From positions 29,204,001 to 29,268,000 of the forward strand of contig OZ249436.1 of the NCBI GenBank assembly GCA_965235115.1: 64,000 bases of DNA, read 5' to 3'. The notes beneath the pieces are model-generated. The model was not told the DNA's origin and did not search any database. It was given only the letters and a program-made list of their open reading frames with translations. This document shows, piece by piece, positions 427-39,169 of this stretch. A program made the translations under genes and the position numbers. The DNA comes from Laetmonice hystrix (lineage: Eukaryota). Positions within the stretch are counted from its first letter, which is position 1, and each line of letters begins with the position of its first letter.

Positions 427-675
427 ATCATGTACAGTATGCAATCCACGCCACTCTTCAGTTCCATACCTGTCTCCCAGCATGTCCTGAGCAGTATGCA
501 GAAGGACAGAAAGACATGTGACGTTTGTGGCAAACAATTCCAGTGCCCGGCCGAACTTAAAAGGCACCTGCTTGTACACACTGGAGAAAGACCCTTTTTG
601 TGTGGCATATGTGGAAAGGCCTTTAATAGGAAATACACTTTAAAAATCCACAAGAATACACATATTAATCATTAA
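427..675 (+). CDS. ZF exon 1: terminal exon, C2H2 pair
   Basis: gtctgtttgcag|ATC; CDVCGKQFQCPAELKRHLLVH-TGERPF-LCGICGKAFNRKYTLKIHKNTH; TAA. Confidence 0.85.
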   Translation: MMYSMQSTPLFSSIPVSQHVLSSMQKDRKTCDVCGKQFQCPAELKRHLLVHTGERPFLCGICGKAFNRKYTLKIHKNTHINH

Positions 676-901
676 TATAAGCATGCGGCATACTGTTTGT
701 AGATTTAAAACCGACTTGTAGTTTGACAAATTCGTGGTTACTGTGAAAACCTGTGGCTTTTGATGTGTAAGACAGTCAGTTATTGTGCCCGTGAACTAGT
801 GTTGGACTTGAGGCAGAATTACTGGAAGCGAAGATTGTGGAACACAAAACACACCAAGTTCAGACTCCTTATCAGGCTTGTTTTGTTTTTCATGTTTCCA
901 G

Positions 902-1126
902 GAAGGATTTTTGCCGTGCGGCTTGCTCATAGCCTCCTCTAAAGATCAGACAATGAAGAGGCCAGATTTGGTCTGCCAGTACTGTGGTAAAGATTTCCTT
1001 GGACCTGCTCACTTGAGAAGACACATGCTGATCCACACAGGAGAGAAACCATTCTCATGTGAAATTTGTGGCAAAAGTTTCAATCGGAAGGGAAACATGG
1101 TGCAACACCGCCAAATCCATAAATGA
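902..1126 (+). CDS. ZF exon 2: terminal exon, C2H2 pair
   Basis: catgtttccag|[42 protein letters not shown] at 1135. Confidence 0.85.
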   Translation, partial: EGFLPCGLLIASSKDQTMKRPDLVCQYCGKDFLGPAHLRRHMLIHTGEKPFSCEICGKSFNRKGNMVQHRQIHK

Positions 1127-1231
1127 CTTTTAAGAATAAAGTCGGGGGTAAAGGTTTACCTCAAAGACACTGGCGATGTCTTTTGAAATTTAAACTAAAA
1201 ATCCTGACAAGATCTTTTTTTCTGCTTGCAG

Positions 1232-1444
1232 AAAAATTATTCACAACTCATAAGAGGAACTGCGAACTTCATGAGGCAAGATTTGATTTGCCAGTACTGT
1301 GGGAAGGCAAATTTTTATAATGCGAGCGACTTGAGAAGACACTTGCGTATTCATACTGGAGAGAAACCATTCTCCTGTGAAATTTGTGGAAAAAGTTTCA
1401 ATCGAAAGGGAAACATGTTACAACACCGCCAGATCCATAAATGA
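1232..1444 (+). CDS. ZF exon 3: terminal exon, chimeric C2H2 pair (finger 1 like exon 4, finger 2 like exon 2)
   Basis: tttttctgcttgcag|[39 protein letters not shown]. Confidence 0.85.
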
Positions 1445-1545
1445 GCAGAATGAAGTCAGGAGTAAAGGTTTTTCTAAAAGACACTGGGGATGTCTTTTGA
1501 AAATGAAAGTGAAAATCCTGACCAGATTTTTTTTTCTGCTTGCAG

Positions 1546-1776
1546 AAAAAATATTTACATCCCGTAGGAGGAACTTCGAACTTCATGAGGCAAGATTTGG
1601 TTTGCCAGTGCTGTGGGAAGGCAAATTTTTATAATGCAAGCGACTTGAGAAGACACATGCGTATTCATACTGGAGAAAAACCCTTTTGCTGTCATATATG
1701 TGGAAAGAATTTTAATCTCAAGTCGAACTTGAAACGACATTGCCAACTGCACAAGAACCCGATGGACTCCATTTAA
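1546..1776 (+). CDS. ZF exon 4: terminal exon, C2H2 pair
   Basis: tttttctgcttgcag|[33 protein letters not shown]. Confidence 0.85.
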
Positions 1777-1840
1777 TTTGAATTATTTTGGCAGCAAAAG
1801 ATGAACTGAAATCTTACAAAGTGTTCAACTCTGCTTGCAG

Positions 1841-2113
1841 ATATACTCCTGGCAACCCAAGCCCAGGCAGACCAAGGATACGAGCTCAGCCCAGAAATTA
1901 GATGGTACATTGTTACAAAGGCAGGAAGACAAAAACTGTTCTTTTTGTTTCAGGCCTTTCCCAAATCGCAAAGATCTAATGCGTCATATCTTGACTCACA
2001 CTGGAGAGAAACCTTACCAGTGCGATATTTGTGGTAGGGATTTTAATCGTAAAGGGAACATGCAGCAACACAGGCAGAGACATTTGAATGAGTTTATTGA
2101 TAATCCAAAGTAA
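1841..2113 (+). CDS. ZF exon 5: terminal exon, C2H2 pair
   Basis: ctctgcttgcag|ATA; CSFC..NRKDLMRH-TGEKPY-CDIC..RKGNMQQH; no Met before finger 1. Confidence 0.85.
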   Translation: MYSWQPKPRQTKDTSSAQKLDGTLLQRQEDKNCSFCFRPFPNRKDLMRHILTHTGEKPYQCDICGRDFNRKGNMQQHRQRHLNEFIDNPK

Positions 2114-2485
2114 AGTATAGCCGTGTCAGGTTTGCATAGGACTTGAGCAAAGATTCTTAATATGGTAATACGGTAATGAAAAAACAGTATGTTTTGTTGC
2201 ATACTGTTCTATTTAAAAACTAATTAACATAGAAGATTCAAAGAAGTTATACTTATGACGCTGCGAGTATACCAACTAGTACTTATTACATGTGCCAGAC
2301 TTTGAAGCATCAATTTCAAGCCTGAAGAATAGTTTGTGCCACTTGAAACTGTGTTTTGGTAACATTTTATAGTGATCTGATTGTTGCCACCCCAAGGTCA
2401 AGTGAAAATAAAGTGTACCCAAAAATGTTTTGCTTCTCTTCATTAGATTTAACTTCTGACCAAGTGTTTTCCACTTTGTTTACAG

Positions 2486-2737
2486 ATTCACCCCTTCCTA
2501 CAAATAATGCCTGGAAACTTAAGTTCCCGTCAGTGTGCTGTTGATACAACAAGAAAGCCAAAAGATGGCGCTACATGTGTTTTATGTGGAAAAGTCTTTC
2601 AAAGTGCTAAAGACCTGGGGCGACATGTTCGAATTCACACAGGAGAAAAGCCTTACAGATGTGATGTTTGTGGGCGTGCATTTGCAACCAAAGGGAACAT
2701 GGTTGTTCACAAAAAGCGGCACTTTCAGGAGATATAA
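2486..2737 (+). CDS. ZF exon 6: terminal exon, C2H2 pair
   Basis: ccactttgtttacag|ATT in frame with ORF 2507-2737; [30 protein letters not shown]. Confidence 0.85.
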
Positions 2738-3004
2738 ATAGTTAAATAATTATCTGTGAAAATGACAGAAGAAACCATTTCGGAGAACAGTTTCTGTTTT
2801 ACCTCTTGATTTTATTAGAACCGAATGTTTTTGTTAATTTCGTAGGCAGCCTTTATGACTTGCCTTTTAATGCATGTAGTTCTGTTTTGTGAAGAATAGT
2901 CGGGACATTTGGCTTCGTTGTACTTGATTATCTGGAAATAAAGAAAGTCAAATACAGCAGAAAGAAGCAACTACCAGTAAACTAGGCTTTCTTTTTATTT
3001 GCAG

Positions 3005-3238
3005 ACGCCATGTCTGTTATATTCGTCACCAGCACTGCTCGTTCCGTCTCGTCCCCGAACAGGACCATGCGAGATCTGTGGGAAAAGCTTCACCAAACCC
3101 AGTGACCTACAGAGACACTTTCGAACCCACACAGGGGAAAAACCCTTTTTTTGCGATTTTTGTGGCAAGAACTTTAGTCTAAAATCAAACATGGTAAAAC
3201 ACATGAGAACCCATAGAAATCATTACTCACGGAAGTAA
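3005..3238 (+). CDS. ZF exon 7: terminal exon, C2H2 pair
   Basis: ctttttatttgcag|[33 protein letters not shown]. Confidence 0.85.
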
Positions 3239-3406
3239 ATGCATTTGGGTTTTTTTTACACACTGAAGGACGGGCAAAAGCAGTGACTGTCAGTAGTTTA
3301 CTGTGCCAATGTTTCCTCAAAAATGGCTGCAGCACGGAGTGGGAAGAAATACCTAAGTTCCAGATGTAAGATGTATGCTGCCATTAAATCTGCAATAAAG
3401 ATCTGA

Positions 3407-3652
<246 letters not shown>

Positions 3653-3685
3653 AAGTTGAGCACATTAACAGACAGGTGTTTCTGA

Positions 3686-3916
<231 letters not shown>

Positions 3917-5014
3917 GAAGTTGAGCACGTTAAACACTACACTTGTAATTTGTAGCGAAATTTATTATGTAAGGGCCTATACATAGATAGGCCACACCAA
4001 GTGGGGGACTAGAAGGTTAAAAACGCTCAATATTGAAAATAAAATTTAAAATGATTGATACGAATGCCTTTTTAATGGATAAAAAAATCGAAACTAGATT
4101 CATACGATTTTTGATGATGGCTTTAACATCAAAGGTAAAATATGAAATGTTCTAATTATCTTCATCCAAGATAATGTATTTTTTATAGCTGGATGATTGG
4201 TTATTGTCTGCCAACTCTCCTGCAGAATTATACGCATGTATAAATTATACATAGACATGTATCTTCATAAAGTTATACATGCGTATTACAGATGTATAAT
4301 TTTATAAGGATACATGTTGAGCTTAAATCATAAATTTGTCTTGAAGAAATTTTATGGTATGAAGTGACAAGCCGGTTGAGGTGCCTTTTATAATGGAAAT
4401 GACACAAAAAAAAGAACAGCTTCCCATTGGTCAATAAACTTAGTCAGTGGTTGGGCGTAGAAGGGACATATGGCTAATATGCCCGACAGTTGGGCATTAT
4501 GCCCGACAGTTGGGCGTATAGCCACTCCATCATCCAATACATGTCTACATGAATCTGTTAAAAAGCAGCGCAATATTTCAATACGTACCATGCTGTGAAA
4601 TAACCGTATCGAATGCTATAAGAGCGAAAGGGGCAAGTGTTCTGCAGTACTTTTAGGAAGATAGTGCTGCTTTGCCTTGTACATTAAGTTTTTGGATAAA
4701 AATATATCATCATTTAGGGATTAGGTGTTTCTGATTTCTTTTCATAAATCTGTTTGGTGGGGGAAAGAGTAGTAGCTGTATGCACGTGTGGCTTTAATCC
4801 AGTGTTACATGTTTTTAATCCTATTGCAACATATTTTGTTTGAAGCCAGACTGTAGATGTATCTTATTAAGAACATTTCAAATGCAAGTTCTTCTGGAAG
4901 GCCCTGCATTCCATTTTTAATGGGCTATGGAAATGCTGCAACTAGTTGAATGAAAGCTTGAGGAAATTTAACAGCAGCTACCATTGAACAGGTGCTCTTT
5001 TCTTCCATTTGCAG

Positions 5015-5227
5015 ATGGTATACCAATTGCAAACCTCAGCAATGGAAGCTCCTGGTCAGCCGAAAAGGCAGTGTCAGATATGTGGCAAAGGTTTCATCAG
5101 AGCTGCTGATCTCAGGAGACATATTCTTATACACACGGGGGAGAAGCCTTTTCATTGCGACATTTGTGGGAGAAAATTCAACAGAAAGTCAACAATGACA
5201 TGTCATATAAAAACTCACACAAAATGA
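5015..5227 (+). CDS. ZF exon 10: terminal exon, C2H2 pair
   Basis: tcttccatttgcag|[33 protein letters not shown]. Confidence 0.85.
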
Positions 5228-5426
5228 GTTAATATGGGCCTGCCTCATTTTTAGCGATGGTAGTAGAATAGGTCAGGCATTTCGATGATCATCAGATTAC
5301 TGCATGAGGGAAAACAAGTCTCGGATTGTTAGAACAGATGGTCAAGGAATATAAGTCCCGAGGTACCATAGGTGATGGACAGAGCTCTGGTTTTGATCAA
5401 GCCTGAATTTTTTTTTTCATTTTCAG

Positions 5427-5654
5427 ATGGCATTTCAATCGCAATATGAGCTAATGGCATCCCCAGGACAGTCAAAGTACGGATGCCACATGTGTGGGAA
5501 AATATTTACAAGGACTGGTCACCTGAAGAGACATTTCCTAATTCACACGGGAGAGAAGCCTTTTGATTGTTCCATTTGTGGTAAAAGGTTCAACCAGAAG
5601 GCTATTTTGACAAAGCATCTCAAAACTCATTCTAAACAAGCTCTTGATTCATAA
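5427..5654 (+). CDS. ZF exon 11: terminal exon, C2H2 pair
   Basis: tttttcattttcag|[33 protein letters not shown]. Confidence 0.85.
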   Translation: MAFQSQYELMASPGQSKYGCHMCGKIFTRTGHLKRHFLIHTGEKPFDCSICGKRFNQKAILTKHLKTHSKQALDS

Positions 5655-5714
5655 ACAAGGGATATGAAGAGTGTGAGGAAATTAAAAAGTTGCTGGTTTT
5701 TTGATCTGCAATAG

Positions 5715-6026
<312 letters not shown>

Positions 6027-6646
6027 GTGTATTGGTACTTGAATCGGAAATGAGTATTCACAACCTCGACTCGAAGGCCCAGAAAAAACTTTTTTGGAGT
6101 ATAAATGAAGAGACACAGAGACGGAGTGGTTTAAATACATCCGTACAGCAGACCATCTCAGAATTTCAGTAAATTAGAGTATAGGGGCCGTCTACTAAAA
6201 TATGAGATAACTTTAGTAGAAATCTTTGCTAAACAAACATTTATATTAAATTCCTACTGGTATTCGGCCAATGAGGCTTTTAGTGAGCAGATCATAGGGA
6301 CAAACTGATAGGAGGGAAGCCGATTTCATTGTTCGAAAAAGCGCACAACAGTGTGCGGTGTCACTTTCCCAGGCAGGGTTTCCTGGAGATTTTGGGTTGG
6401 GGGGGGGGGGTCTCCAAGAAAAAGGGCCTGCAGGAAACCCTCAGGAATCTAGCCGTTGGTTGGAATGGAAGAAAAAATTAAACGTTGGTTGCAAAGGAAG
6501 AAAACAGTTAGGAAAGTAAGGAAATTTTGCCTGTCACTTGGAAGAAAGAATGCTGCCATCATATTGCAAAATATATCCTCCCCTCTGATTTTCTGAAATA
6601 GTCCGAAGGGTCGCAAAATATAGCTGCTGTTTTCTTTCATTTGCAG

Positions 6647-6889
6647 ATGGCATACCAGGTGCAGCCATCAGAAATGGAAGCCTCCTCTTGTCAGCGAAAA
6701 GTGCAGTGTCAGATATGTTGCAAAAAGTTCACACAACCGTATAGCCTAAAGCGACATTTGCTAGTCCATACTGGTGAAAAACCCTTCTTTTGTAATATTT
6801 GTGGCAGGAGTTTCAATCAGAAGTCGATTTTGAAAACGCACTTGAAAGTGCACATGAAATGGGATATGAGGGAGAATACTGTGACGTGA
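6647..6889 (+). CDS. ZF exon 13: terminal exon, C2H2 pair
   Basis: ttctttcatttgcag|[33 protein letters not shown]. Confidence 0.85.
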   Translation: MAYQVQPSEMEASSCQRKVQCQICCKKFTQPYSLKRHLLVHTGEKPFFCNICGRSFNQKSILKTHLKVHMKWDMRENTVT

Positions 6890-7011
6890 TGAGTGAAGGG
6901 CAACCATGTCTGCGAAACCGGAAGCTCTAGGGAGCATTGCATCTTCCCTACATTACTACTAAGCAGTGCAATGGTGGATGCCTCTAAAAAAAGACCTACT
7001 TTCAATTTCAG

Positions 7012-7236
7012 ATGGCATTTATGTTAAATTCCTCATGGAATTCGGTCATCGAGGCTTCTAGTGAGCAGAAAAAACACCGGTGCAAGATATGTGGCAAAGT
7101 CTTTACAAAATTACATAGCTTGAAGAGACATACACGCACACACACCGGAGAAAAACCCTTTCACTGCAACATTTGTGGCAGAAATTTTAACCAGAAGTCA
7201 ACATTGAAGACACATAGCAAAACCCATAATTCATGA
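7012..7236 (+). CDS. ZF exon 14: terminal exon, C2H2 pair
   Basis: ctttcaatttcag|[33 protein letters not shown]. Confidence 0.85.
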   Translation: MAFMLNSSWNSVIEASSEQKKHRCKICGKVFTKLHSLKRHTRTHTGEKPFHCNICGRNFNQKSTLKTHSKTHNS

Positions 7237-7968
7237 GCGATGGTTCCTGGTCTCGTCGTTTTGTGGGCCCTTTCCATCTGGTACCATCCATTGATTTAAA
7301 CGACAGTGGTTGTTTTTTTTTTACTCGCATTTAACCTAGAAAAGGAAGGCGAGTTATTTATTTTAGTGATAGATGGCAGGCCCATGTTGAGGTTTCACAT
7401 GAGGGTTATTTTTAGTTCTTAGGTTTATTTGAAAGGTAAAACAAATGATCATATACATGTAACGGTACTCGACTTTGAATGGGATGGCGAGGTATTCTCA
7501 ACTGTAAGGCATCATGCATGATCTAGAACTGTTGGTCCTGCACTGATCGATCTCTGGCTTTGAGGATCAATACAGAATTCCTCGGAATGACAAGTGAAAG
7601 TTCACATTTCTACGCTTTTAGTGTGAAGCTTTGAGGATACATATCGTTATCCCTGACATAATCTTAAGAAGTCTGATTAAAAATCTGTTGGTTTAGATTG
7701 ATGGAAGTTAGGCAATACGATTGTATATGTGAACGTTTTGGTCTTCAAGATCAAGGTTACTGACATGTAAACCGTTGTGTAAATAAAGACGGCGTTTCAA
7801 TAACAATGAATGGATATGACTTGGAGTGAGATTATGTATGTAGGCAGATGTATGCTCACTTGATTTTTAAGTTTTCTTTTAGCCGTGTAACATACCTGCC
7901 TGTCTAAAGGGTTAAACGGAGGTGTTTTGGAAAGATATCTCTTGACACAAGATTTTCTGTATTTGCAG

Positions 7969-8295
7969 GTGGTAGGTCTTGGAAATAGACAGCCAGAAAA
8001 CTTAGAAAGTGATCTGTTTGAAGCAGAGTTGGGATCAAGCTCACAGGCCGGACATGTTTGCCAGATATGTGGGAAATCTTTCACTGGAGCATGGGCCATC
8101 AACCGACACATGCGCTCCCATACCGGAGAGAAACCTTTCAAATGCGAAGTGTGCAATAAACGTTTTGCTGAAAAGGGAAACTTGAAGCAGCACATCAAAA
8201 TCCATCTGAAACTTGATCGAATGGAGTCACAGGTTCCTCCAATCGGAACGTCCGAGGTCATTTCATTTCCGGTTCAGAAATACCCTCGGATGTAA
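7969..8295 (+). CDS. ZF exon 15: terminal exon, C2H2 pair
   Basis: ttttctgtatttgcag|[33 protein letters not shown]; no Met before finger 1. Confidence 0.85.
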   Translation: MVGLGNRQPENLESDLFEAELGSSSQAGHVCQICGKSFTGAWAINRHMRSHTGEKPFKCEVCNKRFAEKGNLKQHIKIHLKLDRMESQVPPIGTSEVISFPVQKYPRM

Positions 8296-8619
8296 GACAG
8301 GCCCAAAGCCCTGCCAAGTAGTTCCAGCAGATTGCGGAAACTTATAAATCTGACGCAAATTTAGTGCATTTTGGTTTATCCGTTAGTATTGAAGTGGGAT
8401 TTTGACACAAATTTCAGTCTTCTACTTGTGCAGTGAAGGCCTACATTTTGAACACTCATCTGTCACACGTCCTCCACTAAACATCAGTGTGAAAGAGTTC
8501 ACCATCTAAGATTCATATAACGTGCGGAAACTACTGGTAATGCTCAATCTTTAATCAACATTTACAATGGCTTGAGGGAAATAATTACTTCAGACGACAT
8601 CTAAAATGAAAAGCCGCTG

Positions 8620-9450
8620 ATGGCATCCAATGTTTTTAGACCTGCTTGAAAAGAGTTGAGGGAGGTAATGGCTCTAATATTGGGTGATAGAGAGTTCCCC
8701 TCAGTGACTCCTTGGTAAAACACATATGCCAGAATTAATTTTCTTTTGTTACACCTTAAACATAATACCAGTGCCCTGGTTAGTTTGTAGATCGCGATGA
8801 TCTGTCAGGCTTGTATCCTCTATACCACAACATAAAGTTTCAGAGATGTTATATGAACCTGAAGGCAAACATTCTGTAACCTTTTAATTTTGTTTAGTAG
8901 ATCTCTTGATCGATTGATGAAGCCTATGTCCCCAGAGTTCAAGTATGGAACAGTGGTGGTTGTTGTAAATATACCGGTAGTTGTGATTCGCTGATGTACG
9001 GTGGAGGTGAGCCTGGGAACTTATTTGATGACAATATGGCAGTATCGTCCTCAAGAAGGTGCCAGATTCCTTCGCTGCATTTTAGCTATTGTATCAATGC
9101 TTGACCTAATCGGTATGAAGCCACCTTGATTGCACGCTTTTAGAACATCTTATTGCCTTGTAGAAATTGCAGAATATGATGGACTATTTCTTTCTAACCG
9201 TTCACCTGGTAATGGAAGAAGAAATACTGGTCTTAAATTGCTGACAGACTTGTCTCCATCTTTCTGTAATGGGACTACCACAGACATTTTTTAATTTGGA
9301 AACTTCCCACTATTGAGAGATAGATTGAAGAGGGTCGTTTAGTTTATAAGTAAGTGATATGAAGGCATCATTTAATATTCTACCAGATAGATTGTTTATA
9401 ACGGATGAGTTACTTATATGGATGGCTTCACACACATCCATCACCTCGTT
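8620..9450 (-). mobile_element. Degenerate, internally deleted LINE (CR1/L2-type ORF2 reverse transcriptase remnant)
   Basis: Minus-strand translation near 9180-9340 gives FNLSLNSGKFP..KMSVVVPLQKDGDKSVSNLRPVFLLPLPGERLER (typical pre-RT motif of these LINEs); near 8630-8700 gives NSL..IRAITSLNSFQAGLK (ORF2 C-terminal motif); stops and frameshifts. Confidence 0.7.
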
Positions 9451-10649
9451 TCCACCTTGTGAGATACACCATCTCATGTCGCTGACACTATATTAGACAT
9501 GTATGCCCATACCGACCGCCTGCTGTCAACACAACTGCCATACCATCAGACGGACCCCCTGCTGTTATATTAGTTATTCATCAGTCACATATCCTAAGTT
9601 ACGAGTGTCCATAGGACCATCAGCTGGAATTAATTTAGACCATACACACCAAATAAACAAGTGTCCTTCCGGACTACCTGCTGTATCACTAGGGTTCTTA
9701 TCCGTACAGTTGTTGATACCTTTTACTACTTGTTCGAGTTACGGTTTATGGGGAGAAAGATAGATGGATTCTGTATCGGTATGACATTATGTCTGTGCAT
9801 TCAAAAAAAGGATTTACTACTTAGTTGTCAGGTGAGAGGTGATAAATAAGATTAGCCCTTGAAAATGTAGAGAGAGAAACCATAGAGAGAAGCCCTCTAA
9901 AACAATTGAACTGTTCAACTGACAGTGTGCCTTTCTGAATGGATCTGAGCCCAAATTTATTGAGTAAAACTTGTGTTATGTGTCGAATTATAAATCATGC
10001 AACACACTTTACTGGCCCATGGCCATTCCGATACTTCTTTAGATTTTAAAGTAGTGCATTGCACTATAAGTTATCATGCCCTTTGATAATTGCCCAATTT
10101 TTCTTCACCATATCAGAACATGAGGTCTGATACAATAATTTTACCAAATAATGGGATAATCCCAAAGAAATGCATCGTAGGAATATAGGAGTAAATTAAC
10201 CTAGATTTTAATTATTTCGAATCCAGAGTGACCTACTATCTTCGATATAACTGAAGTGTTTGGACCACGTGCATCGATGTAAACGTTGCCAAAGATAACC
10301 ATACCATATTGATGATGACTTGTTACAAAAAAAGGTTGCAGTTGTTCTGATTGTTAACTTGAGGGTCACATTCCACTGTTGTAATAGAGCGAAATAAAAA
10401 CAGAACTTTGAACCATTTCTTGGTTACTAATTTAATTACACAATTTTCCTCACTTAGACAGCCAAATGGGGAGCCTTTCAGTGTATTTAGCATTTGTGTT
10501 GTGTAGGGATAAAAAGATCAAAGAGAAAAGCTGATCTATTAAGGCCTACGTATATACAGCGAAAACGGAGGTTTTAAGTAGGAAATCGCCCTCTGTCACC
10601 AAAGCGACATGAAGTTAGAAATAGGACAAAGTGGACATTGTTACTTTGC

Positions 10650-10700
10650 ACTCTGCGGTCACACATGAGAGAAACCCTTTAGGCGAATGTCGTGTGCCAG
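10650..10700 (+). pseudogene. Decayed ZF cassette fragment
   Basis: ggt cac aca TGA gag aaa ccc ttt = GHT*EKPF, matching RGHTGEKPF of neighbouring exons 16/17 with a stop at the Gly codon. Confidence 0.5.
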
Positions 10701-10751
10701 ACAAAAAGGATTGCCAAGTAAAAGTGATGGAAATTCTATGCTTGCTTCCAG

Positions 10752-11006
10752 GTTACGCTTAGTCAAGTCCTACAAAATCTTCATGCACAGCCTCAGATTC
10801 TACCCAAGCACATTGCATCTGAAGGAAACAAAACATTTTCCTGTCAATTTTGTGGAAAAGCATTTAGGGCGCCATCCTGGCTGGCAATACATATGCGTGG
10901 TCACACAGGGGAAAAACCATTTGCATGTGATATCTGTGGGAAATGCTTTGCAGAAAAAGGGAACATGAAGAAACATCGGAACCTGCATAATAAGTATAAC
11001 ACTTGA
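10752..11006 (+). CDS. ZF exon 16: terminal exon, C2H2 pair (finger frame not in ORF track)
   Basis: tgcttgcttccag|[87 protein letters not shown]. Confidence 0.85.
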
Positions 11007-11152
11007 GTCAAAATACACCATGAAAACGCTGGTCCACAAGATGAACATTGACTGTGGTAAATGTGATAGTGGCCCCTATATCACCAGCTCATCTTTGGCC
11101 AGGGAGGACAGCATATGACCTGTACAATGATATTGAAAAGTAGGAAAAGAAA

Positions 11153-11230
11153 TCGCTTACTTGCAAGTTTGAGATAAAAAACATTCCCAACTGCTGCAAA
11201 ACTGAAGATCGACATCAAGGAACTATTTAG
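11153..11230 (+). pseudogene. Decayed ZF finger remnant
   Basis: SLTCKFEIKTFPTAAKLKIDIK resembles the ..C..CGK.FPTPSKL..H fingers of the array with ligands lost. Confidence 0.4.
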
Positions 11231-11488
11231 CAGGGTTGTATGCCCACTGAGCTCTACTACCAAGGATAGTAATTGTCGCACAGAAGGAATGGTCATAAAA
11301 GAACCAAACAAGTGATGGCTCTTCGAGTGGATTCTGTGAGAATCTGATGAAATTTTAGTGTTGCAAACTCTTAGAGAATAGAAACAGGGTACATTGTCCC
11401 TTTGCCGACTGCAAAGTGTGCAAGGCAAAAAGTTTCCATGAGTAGGATTGCCAAGTAAAAGTGATGGAAATTTTATGTTTGCTTCCAG

Positions 11489-11731
11489 GTTTGCCATAGT
11501 GAGGTCCTACAAAATCTCCATGCACAGCCTCAGGTTCTACGCTCTGCACGTGACCGAGACAGAACATATCCCTGTCAGTTTTGTGGGAAAGTATTTAGGG
11601 CACCATCTTTGTTGGCTCCACACGTACGTGGTCACACAGGGGAAAAACCGTTTACATGTGATGGCTGTGGGAAATGCTTTGCAGAAAAAGGAAACATGAA
11701 GAAGCATCGCCGATTGCATTGTGTAAAATAA
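11489..11731 (+). CDS. ZF exon 17: terminal exon, C2H2 pair (finger frame not in ORF track; paralog of exon 16)
   Basis: tgtttgcttccag|[83 protein letters not shown]; stop overlaps AATAAA. Confidence 0.85.
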
Positions 11732-12240
11732 ATAAAATAACTGACTTAGTATTGGCTCTCAGAAAATACTTTATTTTGTAAAAGTTTAAAGTTATGTAGA
11801 AATGGACAGAGAGGGCATAATGGACAAAGTTGGCATTGCCACTTTGCAGTGTGTATGTATTTGGAGAAATAATTGCACAGTTTCATAATTAAAGAGCTTA
11901 GTGCTATTGGAACCTTTTAGTTTTAAGGTGCCGTGCACAAAGTGATCAATAACCATTATTCTGAAAACCTTCCGTTCAACACAGTACGAAGACATTGTGG
12001 TCATATTGTGGCAGTCTGTGGACTGTAAACAATGTTTTCCAAAGGAAAGGTTTGGATGCGCCAGAATACCTGTTCAATGTATACCGGTAGTCGGTTTTAT
12101 TATAGGGGTTCATAGGTGCCAAAGCCAAAATGTACCAGTATTATGATGCGCCCAACTGAATATCTTGCCGAATGGAACCATCACTCTAGTGAGAGGGGCA
12201 TGCAGAACTTAATTTGACCCAAAATGTTCTGTATTTGCAG

Positions 12241-12510
12241 GTTGTATGTCTCCCAAATATATTGCCATTGCCTACAAGTGGACAAGCAAGAAACTTTGAG
12301 AGTGATATGGTTGCATCAGAATTTGGACCAAGAGCAAGTGGAAGAAACAGTGAATGTGAAATATGTGGGAAATCCTTCCGATCATCATGGGATGTAAACC
12401 GGCACATGCGCATTCACACAGGAGAAAAACCATACAAATGTGATATCTGTCTAATGGCATTTTCAACCAAGGGGAATATGTTGTCACACAAAAGGAATCG
12501 GCATAAATAG
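12241..12510 (+). CDS. ZF exon 18: terminal exon, C2H2 pair
   Basis: gttctgtatttgcag|[33 protein letters not shown]. Confidence 0.85.
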
Positions 12511-12806
12511 TTGGCTCCAAAAGCACGAGTCTTCAGTCACTTAGAGGACGTATACATTGGTCTGAGAAAAATGATGTTTCTGCAGTCTGTATATCTGCAC
12601 CCTGTCCAGTTTTCAGTTGCAAGTCACACCACTTGAGATTTTATTAGGATTAGGAGGAAATCGGAACAAAGTCTAGTCTGTGTTAAAAAGACAGCCTTTA
12701 GTTGAGGATATCCATTCGTCATCCAGTGCCCTCGCTATAATTAACAATCTGTGCTTAATGAGTTCTGCAGACGTTATACTTGACACGGAATTTTCTGTAT
12801 TTGCAG

Positions 12807-13079
12807 GTGGTAGGTCTCCAGTATATATTATCGAGTGGGCACGCAGGGAACCTTGAAAATGATGATCTGGTTGCAACTGAATTCAGATCCAGAGGACCAG
12901 CAAGATGTATAGAATGCGAAATATGTGGGAAATCCTTACGGGCAGCATGGGATTTGAATAGGCACATGCGTATTCACACAGGGGAAAAGCCTTTCAAATG
13001 TGAAGTCTGTGGGAAAGGATTTGCTGAAAAAGGAAATATGAAGACGCATCGCAAAGTTCATGAAAAATTAGATCAATAG
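12807..13079 (+). CDS. ZF exon 19: terminal exon, C2H2 pair
   Basis: ttttctgtatttgcag|[33 protein letters not shown]. Confidence 0.85.
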   Translation: MVGLQYILSSGHAGNLENDDLVATEFRSRGPARCIECEICGKSLRAAWDLNRHMRIHTGEKPFKCEVCGKGFAEKGNMKTHRKVHEKLDQ

Positions 13080-13264
13080 TAGTCAGTGGAATCAGATCCA
13101 TCTTAGTGTATTTAGATGAAAGACCAAAAAGGAGAATTTTGTATGGCTGTACAGAAGATCCTCTGAAGCAAAACTTGCCTGAAGTGATGGAGAAAGCCCC
13201 AACAACTTGCAACATTAAAAAAGGGAAGCATCCGAATGATTCTCGGTTTTATGCTTACTTCCAG

Positions 13265-13534
13265 ATGTTGAACATTCTGCCTGTGCTTCACTCGCCGCCC
13301 AAGATAAGGAAGGGCACGGCAAACAAAGGAGAAAGAGGATATTCATGTTACATTTGTGAGAAAATATTTAGGGCTCCATCAGGGTTGGTTCGCCATATGC
13401 GCTGCCACACAGGAGAAAAACCATATGAATGTGACGTGTGTGGGAAACAGTTTGGTGAAAAGGGGAACATGAAGCAGCACCTCAGAGTCCATGATAAACG
13501 CGAGAGATTCTTTCCTGTGGGCTGTACCGACTGA
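13265..13534 (+). CDS. ZF exon 20: terminal exon, C2H2 pair
   Basis: tgcttacttccag|ATG; CYIC..APSGLVRH-TGEKPY-CDVC..EKGNMKQH. Confidence 0.85.
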   Translation: MLNILPVLHSPPKIRKGTANKGERGYSCYICEKIFRAPSGLVRHMRCHTGEKPYECDVCGKQFGEKGNMKQHLRVHDKRERFFPVGCTD

Positions 13535-13783
13535 ACTAACAAGTCACAAACTTCCCGTGTCAGTAATAGCTACAGATGGTTTATTGTTGATCCTAGGTGA
13601 TGTAGAGAAAAAGGATTGCAGTACAAAGGTTCATTTGGTTTTCATGAGTTTAATTGTGCAGTTGATACCTGTAGACCCGAAAAGAAATCCCTCTGACAAG
13701 GTATGGGTCGAAAATGGCTACAGCAGGGAATTTTACATCTAAAGGCAATTTGTTAGATTCAGACTTTTGTACTGTTCTTCCAG

Positions 13784-14032
13784 ATTGCTCAAAGTCTGCC
13801 CCTGCAGTACCTTCATGAAGCATCACACCAGTTAATGAAGAGCACTTCAACCCGGGGAAACAGACGATATCCGTGTTCCATCTGTGGGAAAGCATTTAGG
13901 GCTCCATCTCTATTGGCACCGCATTTCAGAACGCACACAGGAGAAAAACCCTTTGAGTGTGACCTCTGCGGAAAAGGGTTTGCCAAAAAAGAAAACATGA
14001 CAAAACATAGGAAAATACATGAGAGAATTTAG
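13784..14032 (+). CDS. ZF exon 21: terminal exon, C2H2 pair
   Basis: tactgttcttccag|ATT in frame with ORF 13835-14032; [30 protein letters not shown]. Confidence 0.85.
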
Positions 14033-14678
14033 AAACTGTGATGACATCCAGCTGGTTCACAGAACTCAAACTGACTCTATTGTTGTATGTTTTATCAACT
14101 AGAAAAGCCATCAGTGTGATGGAATCCTGATGGAGCCCTATAACTGTATGTCTTGGTCTGATGGCTTCTGGCAGTCGGGAGTTCAGTCCCTTTGCATAGA
14201 TTAGCATGCTTCATTAACCCACTATTAGGTCTGTAAAGTTGATCTGGATTCCCAGGTAAATAAAATTATATTCATATAACAAACCTTTTTATCCTGTTTT
14301 TACCATAGGTGACTGTCTTGGGCTGTTTAATGGATTTTTAGGGTGAAAAAATATAATTTGTTTATGGGATGGGTAAGATCATATACGATACACAATATTA
14401 TATGGAAGAGGTCGTGGAAAAGGCCTTGATTTTAATTAATGAAGTCGCCATAAAGGTTTCTCATACTGGATATTGATATGCACTGCCAAGTGTGCAATAT
14501 TGGAGAGGCATTTACGCGTGATCTTGTCCCTTGTCGCCTCTAAAACATCTGAACAGGCTCGCTGTGCATTAATATCTGCCCGTCTTGTAGGAAGGACGGC
14601 ACATAGTGTAAGTGGAACCGATTTGATACGCACGAAATTGCTTTCATGGCCTCATGGGTACTTGTGCTGTACTTGCAG

Positions 14679-14954
14679 ATCTACCCACGGTATGTCTCTC
14701 AGACTCTGCTACATGATGAACGAACCAAACCACTCCCACCACAGAGGAGGGCCTATTCTTGTCAAGTCTGTGGGAAATTATCTCCAACACCATCTAAATT
14801 GGAAGCTCACATCAGAACCCACACTGGAGAAAAACCCTTTGCCTGCGACCTTTGTGGTCGTGGCTTTGCCAAAAAAGAAAACATGACAAAGCATCGAAAG
14901 CAAACCCATAAAGGGACCTGGCCGCAGGATGATATTATAGGCCCCCAAGTATAA
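14679..14954 (+). CDS. ZF exon 22: terminal exon, C2H2 pair
   Basis: tgctgtacttgcag|[33 protein letters not shown]. Confidence 0.85.
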
Positions 14955-15356
14955 GCTGCCTCCAAGGATAATGTGCTGTTAAAATTTAGGACCAAGGAGA
15001 GGCAGGTTTTTTAGGGTTGCTGCTGACCCTCAGAAGAAAACTGCCATATATGGTCTCCAGGATAGAGTGTCCCTCAGTGATGAATGGGATGGGAGGGTGG
15101 AGCGAAAAGTGTGAACATTTTGATTTGATAAAGTCGTATTAGGTCCATTCTCATAGGTAAAATGGCTATACATGGAGAAGTGTTGGACATAGTATGCAAC
15201 TACAGGACATCGCTCTCTCAGCGCCCATTGCAGAATGTCAAAAGGAAAAACAGAAATAAAGATAGAAGCACTGACTTCAGTCAGTGGTTTTTATTTGATT
15301 TTTACCAGGCGTGGATTGGAGTGCAAGTCATCATCAGTCATTTGCTGTACTTCCAG

Positions 15357-15599
15357 ATTCAACATGGGTTCTTCCTAGACCCAAACACTGAGTGCAAGGC
15401 CCAACCGGGAGTTCTGCCAAACAAGAGGACCTATTGGTGCCAAGTGTGTGGCAGGTGCTTCCAGGTGCCATCCAAACTGAAGATCCACTTCAGAACTCAC
15501 ACTGGAGAAAGACCATTTCGATGTGATCTCTGTGGCAAAGCTTTCGCTAAAAAAGAAGACATGAAAAGACACAGGAAGATTCATGAAAGGAGTCAATAG
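15357..15599 (+). CDS. ZF exon 23: terminal exon, C2H2 pair
   Basis: tgctgtacttccag|ATT; CQVC..VPSKLKIH-TGERPF-CDLC..KKEDMKRH. Confidence 0.85.
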   Translation: MQHGFFLDPNTECKAQPGVLPNKRTYWCQVCGRCFQVPSKLKIHFRTHTGERPFRCDLCGKAFAKKEDMKRHRKIHERSQ

Positions 15600-15904
15600 A
15601 CTAGTGTGATAACTCTTGGGGTGTCCATCCAAGTATCAAGTGAATATATGTGACAGGTGCTTCCCAAAGTCCATTCCGTTTTCACGTTATTAAGAAGAAG
15701 TCGAAATCTGGGTTCTTTCTCTGTTGGCTTGCAGTCTGATGCTGTAACGTTGTTTACATCATAGATATATAGTGTTTTCAAAACTCAAATTATGTTAACC
15801 AAAACTGATTATGTGGCAGGATTGACAAGTTTGATGGAGGGAGCTCACATTTTAATTATTATCTTCTGTTTTGTTTCATCGGAATTTATATGCTGTGATT
15901 CCAG

Positions 15905-16153
15905 ATCCATCATGGTATGGTGTTTAAAACACTCGCATCTGTACCACATGCCAACTGCTCCCGGGTACAACAGCTACAGAAGAGATCATATGCTTGTACA
16001 GTGTGTGGGAAACCTTTTCCAACACCATGGAAACTGGAAGCACACTTCAGAACTCATACTGGTGAAAAACCCTTCACATGTGATTACTGTGGGAAAGCTT
16101 TTGCTGAAAAAGGCAACATGATTGCACATCGTAGGATCCATGGAAGGATCTAG
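15905..16153 (+). CDS. ZF exon 24: terminal exon, C2H2 pair
   Basis: tgctgtgattccag|[33 protein letters not shown]. Confidence 0.85.
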
Positions 16154-16543
16154 GCCAGCGAAAGAAAAACAAAACTGGGATGCATGGAGCTCCGGTTGAA
16201 ATATTGAAGTTATGCATTGTTATCGTTTTTTTATGAATGGATTGGCAAGAGTTTCAAAACAGTAGTTACCTTTTTTATAGATGATCTTAGTTTTCTCTTT
16301 CTTTAACGCAGAATAGTGAAGTGTTTTATCTAACCCACACTAAACTTCAATAAAACATGGCATGACTTCTTGTTTCATGCCTGAAATCCAAGTTGTGTAT
16401 CACCCGTGATTTTCTGTATTGGCATCGGAAGTGACTCACAGAGTGGCAAGAATAGATTGTGAGCAGGGCCTGGAAGAAAACGTGCTTGAAAATCGAGGTT
16501 ATGCAACACAGCTGAATGTTTTCCAAACGGTTTCTGCTTCCAG

Positions 16544-16822
16544 GTCCAGGGCCAACATTCCTTTGGGGAACAGGCAGGGTCAGTCCAGCCACAGAAAAGG
16601 TCAGCTGGGCTGCTGAAGAAAATCTACACTTGTAAGGTGTGCGGCAAAGAATTTAGCTGGCCTTCAACATTAGAATGTCACTTCAGAATTCACACAGGAG
16701 AGGCTCCATTCAAATGTGATATTTGTGGGAGGGCATTTAATAGAAACCAGAATATGACAAGGCATCGGAGGAGTCGGCATCCAACCATAAAGGATAATAG
16801 ACAAAAAGATTTTTCTTGCTAG
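16544..16822 (+). CDS. ZF exon 25: terminal exon, C2H2 pair
   Basis: gtttctgcttccag|[62 protein letters not shown]; no Met before finger 1. Confidence 0.85.
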
Positions 16823-16988
16823 CTCTATCAATCAAACAAACACCTTGCAGGATCAATATTTTTGTGCAGAGCCATCTGGAAAGACGGGAACATATCGTAC
16901 CAAGCGAGAACTAAAAGAAGCAATTGACTACCTTGCATAGCTATAAAGAAATGAGTTGTGCTATATAGGCTATCTCCTCTGCTTCCAG

Positions 16989-17240
16989 ATCCCCGGCCCT
17001 GTTGCAAGTCAAACTTTGCGAACAAACCCAAACAGCCAGAACAACCAAGTGTCAATGTTGCAAAGAAGAATTGCCTACGCATGCATGGTCTGTGGGAAAG
17101 AATTGCCATCACCTTCAAAATTAGAATGTCACTTCAGAACGCACACAGGAGAGGCCCCATTCAAATGTGATATTTGTGGGAGGGCATTCAGTAGAAGCCA
17201 GAACATGACAAGACATCGGAAGAGTCAGCATCATGTGTAA
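16989..17240 (+). CDS. ZF exon 26: terminal exon, chimeric (5' like exon 27, 3' like exon 25)
   Basis: ctcctctgcttccag|ATC; CMVC..SPSKLECH-TGEAPF-CDIC..RSQNMTRH. Confidence 0.85.
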   Translation: MPGPVASQTLRTNPNSQNNQVSMLQRRIAYACMVCGKELPSPSKLECHFRTHTGEAPFKCDICGRAFSRSQNMTRHRKSQHHV

Positions 17241-17514
17241 ACAGACAATAGATCAACTATCTCCAATGTGAAACTGTCCTAGAGCAGTCGTTATGACTTC
17301 ACTAGCGGTGTCTTTCAGAGATTGATAGTTGTTTCTGGCTCTGTCAATCAAACGAACATGAGAGCACTTCGCAGCATCAAAAGTTCTGTACACAGTCCTG
17401 GAAGTCAGGAGCGTTTCACATAAAGCCAGTACTGAAACAAGAAATTGACTTCCTTGCGATGGTTTAGAAAAATGAGTTGCAATGTGCTATATAGGCTATC
17501 TCCTATGCTTCCAG

Positions 17515-17769
17515 ATCCCCGGTCCTGTTGCAAGTCAAACTTTGCCAACAATCCCAAACCGCCAGAACAAGGAAGTGTCCATGTTGCAAAGAAGATTTGT
17601 CTACAGGTGCATGGTCTGTGGGAAAGAATTTCCAACACCTTCAAAATTAGATGTTCACTTCAGAACTCACACAGGAGAAAAGCCTTACAGATGTCAACTG
17701 TGCGAAAAGTTGTTTTCTGAAAAAGGATCAATGCTTAGACATTGTAGGAATCTTCATGGAATACTGTGA
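17515..17769 (+). CDS. ZF exon 27: terminal exon, C2H2 pair
   Basis: ctcctatgcttccag|[33 protein letters not shown]. Confidence 0.85.
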
Positions 17770-18116
17770 TCAAAGAGTGTTCAATGCCCAAATTTGAACT
17801 TTACTATAAATGGATCAACTCTGGTGGTTGCAAACTCTCGGTGGCTGAAGCAAACATGATGTTTTTCTTTGAAGGAATGATACCAGTGTTCAATTTGAAT
17901 GAACTTATCCCGTATGGCAGTGGGATAAGGCTGTGACTTTATCAAGACATGTCTTTTTCACTGCAGTGGGTATTCGTGGCAAGCAATATTTGAGAAGCTT
18001 TGATCGATGTGTAGGAACTGTGTATTGTGAGAAAAATAAGAATAAAGTAAGAAGTGCTGAACATGATCACGTCATTATAATTAATCTATAGTTAATAGGG
18101 TTTTCTGATTTTTCAG

Positions 18117-18362
18117 GTGCACCAGGAATTCCACTTCCAAAACATATCGTCACTTCAACTTTTTAAATCCTACAAGATGCAGTCGTCACAGATGAAAAGT
18201 TATCAATGTCAAATTTGTGGGAAAGAATTCCCAACACCCTCTAAGTTAGAGGTGCATGGAAGGAGTCATTCGGGAGAAAGGCCTTACAAATGTGATTTGT
18301 GTGATAAAGGATTCACAACAAAACAGAACATGCAGCAGCATCGTAGAATCCATAGGAAATAG
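18117..18362 (+). CDS. ZF exon 28: terminal exon, C2H2 pair
   Basis: ttctgatttttcag|GTG; CQIC..TPSKLEVH-SGERPY-CDLC..TKQNMQQH. Confidence 0.85.
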   Translation: MHQEFHFQNISSLQLFKSYKMQSSQMKSYQCQICGKEFPTPSKLEVHGRSHSGERPYKCDLCDKGFTTKQNMQQHRRIHRK

Positions 18363-18581
18363 GTCAACCACAGTACATTTTCCTCTTTATAGATTCAAGA
18401 GGATCTGTCTTCATGCAGAAAGTTTTAAGTTCTTTGTGGGGAGGTAACAACAGGCAAGCACCCATCACAGCACACATCCCCATGGGTTGGCGCAAGTTTG
18501 TTCAAGTATTGACATCTGGTAATGCCATCCCGGCGACGACTTAACATTATCACTATTAGGTATTTTCTGCTGTGCTTGCAG

Positions 18582-18722
18582 ATGTTAGGCTATCCACAGG
18601 AGACAGCTGGTCATTCCGGCAGTACCACTGCTCAGTATAGATTTTGTCTCATGCTTGTCACTCAAGCATTGCCCTTTCTTTTTGCAGATATGGACACGCA
18701 ATACTTGGAGCTCATTGCATGA
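18582..18722 (+). pseudogene. Internally deleted copy of ZF exon 30 (acceptor intact, fingers deleted)
   Basis: tgtgcttgcag|ATGTTAGGCTATCC..ACCACT matches 19249-19296, then joins directly to sequence matching 19562 onward; frame closes at 18722 without fingers. Confidence 0.75.
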
Positions 18723-18933
18723 CAGTGTACCAATTAAACAGAGCAGGGAAAGCAAGTCAAATAAGAAGACTATTGTGTGTCAAGTCTGTGGAAAAGAATT
18801 TCTCTACCCGTCTAAATACCAACAGCATTTAAGGATACATACAGGCGAAAAGCCATTCAAATGTGATTTGTGCGACAGAGGATTCACAACAAAACAGAAC
18901 ATGCAGCAGCATCGTAGACTCCATAGAAAATAG
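18688..18933 (+). CDS. ZF exon 29: terminal exon, chimeric (finger 1 like exon 31, finger 2 like exon 28)
   Basis: tttctttttgcag|[33 protein letters not shown]. Confidence 0.85.
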   Translation: MWTRNTWSSLHDSVPIKQSRESKSNKKTIVCQVCGKEFLYPSKYQQHLRIHTGEKPFKCDLCDRGFTTKQNMQQHRRLHRK

Positions 18934-19248
18934 GTCAACCACAGTACATTTTCCTAGCTGGCTATAGATTCAAGAGGACTCAAAATGAAAGTCTGGTCTG
19001 TCTTGATGCAGAAAGTTTTTTTGCTTTTTTTAATGTTTTGTTTTTGTGGGGAGGTAACAACAGACAAGCACCCGTGTACAGCAGTTTGTGGGCAGGTATT
19101 GGGACGGTGTCGCAGTTTCTTGTTTTAATCACAGCAGACGTCCCGATGGGTTGGCGCAGGTTTGTTCATGTATTGACATCTGGTAATGCCATCTCGGTGA
19201 CAACTTAACATTATCACTATTGGGTAATTTCTTCTGCTGTGCTTGCAG

Positions 19249-19506
19249 ATGTTAGGCTATCCACAGGAGACAGCTGGTCATTCCGGCAGTACCACTACTC
19301 TGCCAAAAAGGACCTCCTCCGTATGTCTGGTCTGTGGGAAGCAGTTCCAGTTCCCATCCAAACTTGCGGCACACATGCGAATTCACACTGGAGAGAAACC
19401 CTTCAACTGCAGTGTTTGTGGGAGGGCTTTCAATATCAAGTCAAACATGCAACAGCATTATCTAAGGCATCAAAACTACACAGGACAGAAAAGGGACTCT
19501 TGTTGA
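19249..19506 (+). CDS. ZF exon 30: terminal exon, C2H2 pair
   Basis: ctgtgcttgcag|[33 protein letters not shown]. Confidence 0.85.
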
Positions 19507-19622
19507 AAATCACTGGCCTATTGTTTATTAAATTGATTTAATGTTATTCCTACAGAGCGGTCTGCTCAGTATAGATTTTGTCTCATGCTTGTCACTCAAG
19601 CATTGCCCTTTCTTTTTTGCAG

Positions 19623-19871
19623 ATATGGACACGCAATACTTGGAGCTCATTGCATGGCAGTGTACCAATTAAACAAAGCATGGAAAGCAAGTCAAATAAG
19701 ACTATTGTGTGTCAAGTCTGTGGAAAAGAATTTCTCTACCCGTCTAAATACCAACAGCATTTTAGGATGCATACAGGCGAAAAGCCATTCAAATGTCCTG
19801 TGTGTTTTCGGCAGTTCTCCGATAAGGGAAACTTGAAGAAACATCACCAGCAGGTTCATCAGGTTAGATGA
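19623..19871 (+). CDS. ZF exon 31: terminal exon, C2H2 pair
   Basis: ttcttttttgcag|[33 protein letters not shown]. Confidence 0.85.
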   Translation: MWTRNTWSSLHGSVPIKQSMESKSNKTIVCQVCGKEFLYPSKYQQHFRMHTGEKPFKCPVCFRQFSDKGNLKKHHQQVHQVR

Positions 19872-19930
19872 GAGTAGAAAAGATTTTTAATTATCCCAAG
19901 GTTTCATAGTAGATATTCTACTGTTTTCAG

Positions 19931-20164
19931 ATGCAGGGAGTACAGGCCAAGCACATACAACCTAGTTTTGCAATGAGAGGCCAGGGGGTACGTAAGCACC
20001 ACCAGCACCAGTGTCCTATTTGTGGGAAGTTCAACCTGACTCAATCAAGATATGAAAACCACATGAGAACGCATACAGGAGAAAAACCCTTCTCTTGCCA
20101 TATCTGTGGCAAAGCTTTCAATGATAGCTCCAACAGAAATAGACACCTCAAACTTCATCAGTGA
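19931..20164 (+). CDS. ZF exon 32: terminal exon, C2H2 pair
   Basis: ctactgttttcag|[39 protein letters not shown] at 20212. Confidence 0.85.
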   Translation: MQGVQAKHIQPSFAMRGQGVRKHHQHQCPICGKFNLTQSRYENHMRTHTGEKPFSCHICGKAFNDSSNRNRHLKLHQ

Positions 20165-20621
20165 GAGAGCAGAATATATTGGGAGATATGCTGTTTTAGA
20201 CGGTTAAAAGTAATAAAAGGAAACCAATGCACATTACATACCATAATTATCTCAAGATATTGCATTTGACTTTAATAAAACGGCTTTAGGGAAGATGTAA
20301 AGCGATTGCAGAACCAGAATCGAGGGGCAAGTTTGACTTCTTATTTGCTGAAGGCATGAACCACTATAGGATTTGAGTGCTTATGGAGAATTGAATGTGA
20401 AAGCTACTTCTGCCGACCAACCTTCAAAAAGGGTGTGACAGGATGCCAATCAAACGTCAGGTCTAGGAGATCTAGATCCTTCGTACAATATCGTGAGACT
20501 TTGTACAGAGCACTTAGCTGAACTTATGAAGGGCTGCATTCTGAGAATAACATAAGATTAGAGGTATCCCATTCTATCTCTGCAGGTGGTGCCTTCAAAG
20601 GTTTAACTATTGTACTTTCAG

Positions 20622-20894
20622 GTCATGATGCAAATGGACCCACACGAGCTGGAAAAGTGGCAAGTTTCTAAGGTGGTAGAGTGTAGTATGATGGGAGGTT
20701 CTACTCAAGTGCACAGCTGTCAATTTTGCGGAAAACAATTTCCGACTCGTTGGAAGTTAGAAACGCATAATAGAACACACACTGGCGAAAAACCTTTTCA
20801 GTGTTTAACATGTCAGAAGTATTTTAGACAAAAAGGAACTTTAAAAAGACATATGGTGTCTGTGCACAAAGAAGACATTTCAGACAGTACATGA
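20622..20894 (+). CDS. ZF exon 33: terminal exon, C2H2 pair
   Basis: tattgtactttcag|[33 protein letters not shown]. Confidence 0.85.
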   Translation, partial: VMMQMDPHELEKWQVSKVVECSMMGGSTQVHSCQFCGKQFPTRWKLETHNRTHTGEKPFQCLTCQKYFRQKGTLKRHMVSVHKEDISDST

Positions 20895-39040: not shown

Positions 39041-39169
39041 AGATCAGTTCATTGGGCCATGAACGGACCCCATGAATTGCCCCCCCCCCCCCCCCCCCCC
39101 GAACAACGGGTGGATGAACATGGATGTATTTCAAGTTTACGATTGACCTTATCTTCTGTGTTCTTCCAG

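Follow-up and report, generated by a model that had tools for sequence, protein, structure and literature searches.

This locus raises the question of how exon 3, lying between two similar zinc-finger exons, came to resemble one neighbour at its 5' end and the other at its 3' end, and whether the joint between its two fingers is a place built for such exchange. The window, meaning the whole stretch of 64,000 nucleotides that was analysed, holds an array of such exons. Six-frame searches of the window found 52 cassettes, all on the + strand (52/52); each encodes a pair of C2H2 fingers with a TGEKP-type linker and runs into a stop shortly downstream. The number confirms the count of the original prediction, and all 52 cassette frames are open. 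The array and the features around exon 3 are as follows.

481..49111, + strand: array of 52 two-finger cassettes, each with a stop, found by six-frame searches
902..1126, + strand: exon 2 (A1-A2), putative donor of finger 2 and of the downstream spacer; Pfam zf-C2H2 and zf-H2C2_2 above cut-off
1127..1231, + strand: spacer and acceptor of exon 3, apparent copy of 1445-1545 (86/101 aligned bases identical)
1232..1444, + strand: exon 3 (B1-A2), the hybrid, a 70-codon open frame with two C2H2 fingers (alignment, Pfam, model)
1358..1362, + strand: putative crossover interval in the TGEKP codons of exon 3, between the last exon-4-like site (1357) and the first exon-2-like site (1363)
1546..1776, + strand: exon 4 (B1-B2), putative donor of acceptor, leader and finger 1 (alignment)

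Exons 2, 3 and 4 share one design: behind a phase-0 acceptor comes a short leader, then a pair of C2H2 fingers with TGEKP between them, and finally a stop. The three-way alignment contained 125 informative sites. Left of the break 53/56 sites agreed with exon 4, and right of it 60/69 agreed with exon 2; a single break therefore fits 113/125 sites and is contradicted by 12/125. The best break lay at 1357-1363 with a maximum chi-square of 82.3, a value reached by 0/20000 permutations. A second alignment, made in two halves, gave the same break with 46:1 sites on the left and 5:56 on the right. Under a harsh null, in which a plain copy of one parent was mutated by 2% on one side and 40% on the other, the observed value was reached in 1/2000 and 0/2000 runs.

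The segment identities agreed with this break. The acceptor (30/32 to exon 4, 17/32 to exon 2), leader (49/57 and 28/56) and finger 1 (63/66 and 44/63) of exon 3 were 86–96% identical to exon 4 and 50–70% identical to exon 2. Finger 2 was 92% identical to exon 2 (69/75) and 69% to exon 4 (50/73), and the downstream spacer was 85% identical to the exon 2 side (86/101) and 46% to the exon 4 side (39/84). The linker matched exon 4 at 13/15 bases and exon 2 at 14/15. The original prediction had placed the switch at about 1358-1363, in the TGEKP codons, with exon 4-like sequence before it, exon 2-like sequence after it and the order A1-A2, B1-A2, B1-B2. All of this was borne out, and the break-point test on exons 2, 3 and 4 with their flanks gave one significant break. 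The uniform likeness to one neighbour that would speak against a hybrid was not seen.

The likeness extends beyond the exon, as the following two copies of one unit show.

1042..1359, + strand: first copy of the duplicated unit (finger 2, spacer, acceptor, leader, finger 1), 89.8% identical to 1360-1673 over 314 aligned bases
1360..1673, + strand: second copy of the duplicated unit, aligned to 1042-1359

Tandem Repeats Finder (TRF) gave a period of 314 and 2.2 copies. The whole interval between homologous points is duplicated head to tail as one block, with the stop and the non-coding spacer included. The divergence at relaxed sites in the four parts of the unit was 13/70, 8/57, 5/14 and 1/12, which fits one age (p = 0.22, with low power). 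Exons 2 and 4 share 36/43 bases around the junction, with a perfect run of 18 bases just upstream of it.

The claim that unequal crossover between neighbouring cassettes both added exon 3 and made a new finger pair is well supported by these alignments: by the duplication of a single block, the fit to one age, the order of the exons and the recurrence at exons 29 and 26 described below. As the best explanation, we consider it very probable that the array belongs to an animal gene for a transcription regulator, as a lola-like row of 52 last exons of which one at a time would be spliced in phase 0 to a common upstream head, and that exon 3 is the product of an out-of-register germ-line crossover between cassettes A and B. 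In the ancestor, cassettes A (exon 2) and B (exon 4) would have been adjacent. In the germ line, B on one chromatid may have mispaired with A on the other along the stretch from the end of the finger 1 helix through TGEKP, which is alike in both. A crossover in this shared stretch would have copied finger A2, the spacer, the acceptor and finger B1 in a single step, leaving A1-A2, B1-A2, B1-B2. The new exon would have been usable at once and would have carried a finger pair absent before. Its working acceptor, open frame and correct linker would follow from an exchange in register. We infer from sequence that a crossover was the cause, that exon 3 is spliced and that its DNA target has changed. 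On its own, the exon 3 event is an ordinary unequal crossover.

A strict screen of all 132600 exon triples returned four hybrids, namely exons 3, 26, 29 and 19. In exons 3, 26 and 29 the donor of finger 2 lies upstream and the donor of finger 1 downstream, and these three also pass correction in the all-triples break-point scan. The two further hybrids of this order, with one remnant, are listed here.

16544..17769, + strand: exons 25, 26 and 27; exon 26 is a hybrid (5' part like 27, 3' part like 25) with its break at about 17119-17126
18117..19871, + strand: exons 28, 29, 30 and 31; exon 29 is a hybrid (finger 1 of 31, finger 2 of 28) with its break at about 18857-18865
18563..18627, + strand: remnant of exon 30 that keeps the acceptor and the beginning of the leader but no finger, 98% identical to 19230-19294 and cut by a 267-base deletion

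The informative sites of exon 29 were divided 73:1 left of the break and 3:57 right of it, and the blocks 18290-18860 and 18861-19792 were 95.6% identical. The parents of exon 29 (28 and 31) stand two cassettes apart, so the crossover should have copied exon 30 too. The exon 30 remnant (65 bases) sits beside exon 29, where the crossover model predicts the second copy of exon 30. The remnant has an intact acceptor and 46 open codons, and it could yield a head-only isoform. In exon 26, the blocks 16671-17121 and 17122-17647 were 84.2% identical. Exon 26 groups with exon 25 and not with exon 27 in the finger-1 tree, which argues against a clean finger swap. Exon 26 has the TGEAP linker of exon 25, which identifies the part of the hybrid that resembles exon 25.

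Both donors of exon 19 lie upstream of it, an order unlike that of exons 3, 26 and 29. Exons 18 and 19 (12241-13079) have finger 1 in common but differ in finger 2: that of exon 18 groups with exon 6, at a distance of twelve cassettes, and that of exon 19 is similar to exons 16 and 17. From the sequence, this pattern looks like an older or conversion-type exchange, or convergence. Exon 38 is borderline: it misses the strict screen and, with exons 39 and 37 as parents, is not significant after correction. Break points were also tested in 16 hand-picked triples, in which exons 38, 19, 23 and 21 had low, uncorrected permutation counts and are possible older events. Exons 9, 31, 38, 40 and 27 were rejected as hybrids. 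They pass correction, but their third partner is distant or arbitrary, and the signal marks the end of likeness to one relative; exons 31 and 27 are themselves parents of hybrids. Whole-cassette copies also occur in the array (8/9, 16/17 and 39/40). Exons 8/9 (3422-3933) are a very young whole-cassette duplicate with 97.6% identity. Ahead of the exon 9 acceptor, 7/9 sites agree with exon 10, and the junction may lie at the acceptor.

Conflict between finger-1 and finger-2 trees had been expected. It was supported for exon 29 (97/97), but the finger-2 tree did not recover exons 2 and 3 as a supported clade. Three supported conflicts besides that of exon 29 involve exons 18 and 21. Across the array, the correlation between finger-1 and finger-2 distances (51 exons, with exon 50 left out and one codon dropped from exons 3 and 4 to keep the register) was r = 0.269, compared with 0.399 ± 0.039 for random codon splits (11/5000), and it was lowest at the split in the linker. 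Part of this decoupling could come from selection acting on each finger separately. Approximately unbiased (AU) tests rejected each finger's tree on the other finger's data. Because trees of about 70 bases would reject each other anyway, this result was not relied on and the random-split control was used instead. Finger 1 of exon 50 (45872-45928) is two residues short.

A stronger claim would be that the linker is a dedicated, selected shuffling device, with crossovers steered to it and the array under diversifying selection. The linker is the most conserved 15-base window (mean identity 0.77), none of the three firm breaks lies before the first recognition residues of finger 1 or beyond the point where finger 2 begins, the residue-code pairs are distinct in 52/52 cassettes, and the histories of the two fingers are decoupled, all of which speak for such a device. 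However, linker conservation follows from protein function, and crossovers in the most conserved stretch are expected as a by-product; the linker would be a natural place for exchange. Counted in bases from the final His codon of finger 1, the firm breaks fall at -23..-16, +5..+11 and +19..+27. They are spread over 54 bases, and only one is inside TGEKP proper. The clustering of breaks (3 of 8) gave p = 0.033 when the median period was taken as the target, 0.31 with the homologous core and 0.61 with only the fingers as target, in a window chosen after the fact and with a denominator (8 recent duplications) that is a rough count. The longest exact match fell in the linker zone in only 38/90 near-neighbour pairs. 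Mid-cassette hybrids are the easiest to detect, and whole-cassette copies exist beside them. We regard a dedicated device as rather unlikely. The original idea of a built-in way to diversify binding stands in that a new finger pair was made; beyond this it exceeds the data, as the clustering is not significant against the fingers and the order of exon 19 deviates. The simplest reading of the shuffling, simpler than a built-in site for it, is that homology between tandem cassettes brings it about as a by-product and that selection retains some of what is made.

The same arrangement could have arisen in two steps. Exon 2 would have been duplicated whole, and the spacer end, acceptor, leader and finger 1 of the copy would then have been overwritten by conversion from exon 4, or the mirror case would have occurred. 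The final sequence would be identical to that left by a crossover, and sequence alone cannot separate the two. The higher synonymous divergence of finger 2 (5/14) than of finger 1 (1/12) favours two steps, and exons 18 and 19 suggest conversion-like events in the array. However, this route needs two events and a tract ending in register, and the divergence of the four parts is compatible with a single age (p = 0.22). In addition, the donor order recurs in three hybrids, and one crossover offset by two cassettes should leave just such a remnant of exon 30. We consider the two-step route improbable and retain the single crossover.

The meaning of the hybrid depends on what the cassettes are. For each cassette, the best acceptor no more than 150 bases from finger 1 was chosen without regard to phase. 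The best acceptor was in phase 0 in 48/52 cassettes, compared with a chance expectation of one third, and 15 of the 48 phase-0 cassettes had no Met before finger 1. The cassettes are therefore read as alternative last exons that would need a coding head upstream, outside the window. By sequence, the array resembles a lola/fruitless-type locus: its last exons have a common phase, and every one carries zinc fingers and closes with a stop. Two protein searches for the identity of the gene or its head gave poly-finger proteins only (among the best 120 of 637 and the best 120 of 3948 matches), and a third search for the gene's identity gave no candidate. A search of the ESM Atlas returned generic C2H2 clusters. 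Amphioxus MBD4/MeCP2 is said to have zinc-finger exons and is a lead in this respect.

In the small and patchy run X4, whose kind is unrecorded, 2 of the 8 listed contigs begin one base before predicted exons 6 and 15, with 27 and 11 unaligned letters, respectively, in front. These starts are no more than a hint of splicing at the predicted acceptors. None of the four public runs is registered as RNA, and no exon 3 transcript turned up. One X4 contig covers exons 13 and 14 and the spacer between them (6666-7316). If X4 is RNA, downstream cassettes would serve as 3' UTR of upstream ones by read-through. PolyA-like hexamers follow 27/52 cassettes, with none after exons 3 and 4, and are uninformative.

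It is very improbable that the cassettes are separate tiny genes or pseudogenes and that the hybrid has no functional meaning. A Met does occur in 33/48 phase-0 leaders, that of exon 3 included, and no head exon lies within the window. Phase 0 in 48/52 cassettes and the 15/48 leaders lacking Met, however, speak against separate genes. The spacers of about 100 bases between exons 2 and 3 and between exons 3 and 4 leave little room for promoters, the frames are open in 52/52 cassettes, the fingers are conserved relative to the spacer, and the contig starts at exons 6 and 15 hint at splicing. Tandem near-repeats are a known source of mis-assembly, but an artefact joining two haplotypes has a negligible probability here: the unit copies differ by about 10%, far above the few allelic differences in this region, and single contigs of public runs X1 and X3 bridge 1-3451 with 0 and 3 other letters at flat depth, with no joint skipping the unit listed among the contigs of the runs. 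These contigs exclude mis-assembly at 1-3451; the four runs are from one sample, possibly the source of the window, and the contigs are for this reason silent on other individuals.

Some further features of the window were recorded. The DNA profile of the cassette had 53 matches in the window, and the extra one is a decayed linker at 10655-10681. This remnant contains a stop, lies upstream of exon 16 (E = 0.031) and is a sign of cassette loss. The linker variants TGEAP, SGERP, TGENP, TGEKG, TGDKP and TGDRP occur at sites 16691, 17142, 18267, 28928, 37831, 45133, 45926 and 47741. A repeat of very high depth (thousands) at 8238-8420 overlaps the 3' tail of the exon 15 frame. A 468-base tandem repeat with 3 copies at 25759-27181 is related to 42645-43021, and a 258-base tandem repeat with 10.8 copies (95%) occupies 50274-53551. 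The frame 59215-59520 on the - strand was considered as a possible transposase piece and was rejected, as no Pfam family matched it.

The product of exon 3 appears to be constrained. Compared with their parents, its fingers differ by 3 non-synonymous changes in 123.5 sites and 6 synonymous changes in 26.5 sites, and the spacer by 15/101 (Fisher p = 0.0009). If exon 3 alone were drifting, 9.2 changes would be expected, and the probability of 3 or fewer is 0.019. From these counts, the fingers look as if they were kept by purifying selection. The leader is not conserved (8 non-synonymous and 0 synonymous changes).

Pfam placed PF00096 and PF13465 above cut-off for exon 3, with PF00096 passing for one stretch only, finger 2. 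The Cys2His2 ligands and the TGEKP linker are present, and Pfam, the predicted model and the fold search agree on a two-finger fold. In finger 1 of exon 3, Cys and His are separated by 13 residues; in both exon 3 (1289-1354) and exon 4 (1603-1668), finger 1 has one extra residue in this stretch. The structure model of exon 3, made from 48/52 cassettes, had a pLDDT of 87.7 and matched the DNA-bound two-finger structure 7y3m with a TM of 0.86. Its best fold matches were the DNA-bound two-finger clusters of SALL4/SALL3 (7y3m, 7y3i, 7y3l and 8a4i; TM 0.84–0.87), a generic fold likeness at 48–54% identity that is evidence of neither orthology nor an AT-rich target.

The helix residues at positions -1, 2, 3 and 6 are GAHR+RGNQ in exon 2, NSDR+RGNQ in exon 3 and NSDR+LSNR in exon 4. 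Exon 3 therefore has a pair of base-contacting residue sets that is new relative to exons 2 and 4. Position 2 of the helix is also one of the usual base contacts. Positions -1, 3 and 6 are given as the usual base contacts of C2H2 fingers in the accessible part of one source (PMC5363842). With a new pair of residue sets at these contact positions, exon 3 likely has a new DNA target. Exon 3 is a clean, datable case in which a new isoform and a new finger pair would arise in one step without point mutations, and exons 2, 3 and 4 form a natural finger-swap experiment on the modularity of two-finger recognition. We speculate, tentatively and with more doubt than confidence, that in a non-arthropod animal the array serves the germ line as a combinatorial library of DNA-reading modules, attached to a head other than BTB. 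Crossovers where the two fingers join would keep combining first and second fingers anew, each product would be a ready-spliced isoform with a new target, and selection would keep new pairs. The number and pairing of cassettes would then vary between individuals and species at a PRDM9-like pace.

The layout of the array has known counterparts. Lola has 20 isoforms with a constant BTB domain, 17 of them with zinc fingers, according to the sections available of 10.1101/132027. Last exons of the lola/fruitless type are gained and lost through duplication, as stated in the available portion of PMC4197022. As far as these excerpts describe them, lola and fruitless resemble the present array in that several last exons stand in a row, every one closed by a stop and bearing a finger module of its own; the array here has 52 cassettes compared with the 20 isoforms of lola. 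The consulted parts of this literature (10.1101/132027, PMC4197022) do not mention hybrids between finger exons. Unlike lola, the array here has a canonical C2H2-TGEKP-C2H2 pair within one exon. Lola has a BTB head, whereas the present array is known from its last exons alone, its head lying outside the window.

Lee et al. 2010 reportedly found that staggered recombination in Dscam yields chimeric exons. Dscam1 exon clusters grow and shrink through staggered, that is out-of-register, homologous recombination (PMC12431208, in a passage citing Lee et al. 2010). As far as that passage goes, Dscam1 is like the present array in that tandem alternative exons are changed by out-of-register recombination. 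One study of Drosophila Dscam, in the portion available, reported no duplication of more than one exon (PMC3364881), and another, likewise in excerpt, reported no gene conversion between paralogous exons of Dscam (PMC3236188). The exon 29 event spans two cassettes, unlike the Drosophila Dscam duplications described in that portion (PMC3364881). The Dscam exons are internal, mutually exclusive Ig halves, whereas those here are last exons with two separable DNA-reading modules.

The mechanism is known from Dscam and PRDM9 and the layout from lola and fruitless; their combination was not found in print. A literature search covering mainly open-access papers turned up no report of fingers being reassorted within alternative last exons of two fingers. 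If the pattern holds at other such loci, alternative last exons and finger recombination would be joined in one locus. The C2H2 arrays of PRDM9 and KRAB proteins are altered by unequal crossover and conversion, according to the parts available of PMC6116924 and PMC5363842. On that partial reading, they are like the present array in the unequal crossover of C2H2 fingers and in the conserved TGEKPY linker. The array is not a PRDM9-type coding minisatellite, having two fingers per exon, a period of at least 264 bases and a mean cassette identity of about 0.54. PRDM9 and KRAB fingers are homogenised 84-base repeats within one exon of one protein, whereas the crossover here joins separate exons with a mean identity of about 54–55% and adds an isoform, not protein length.
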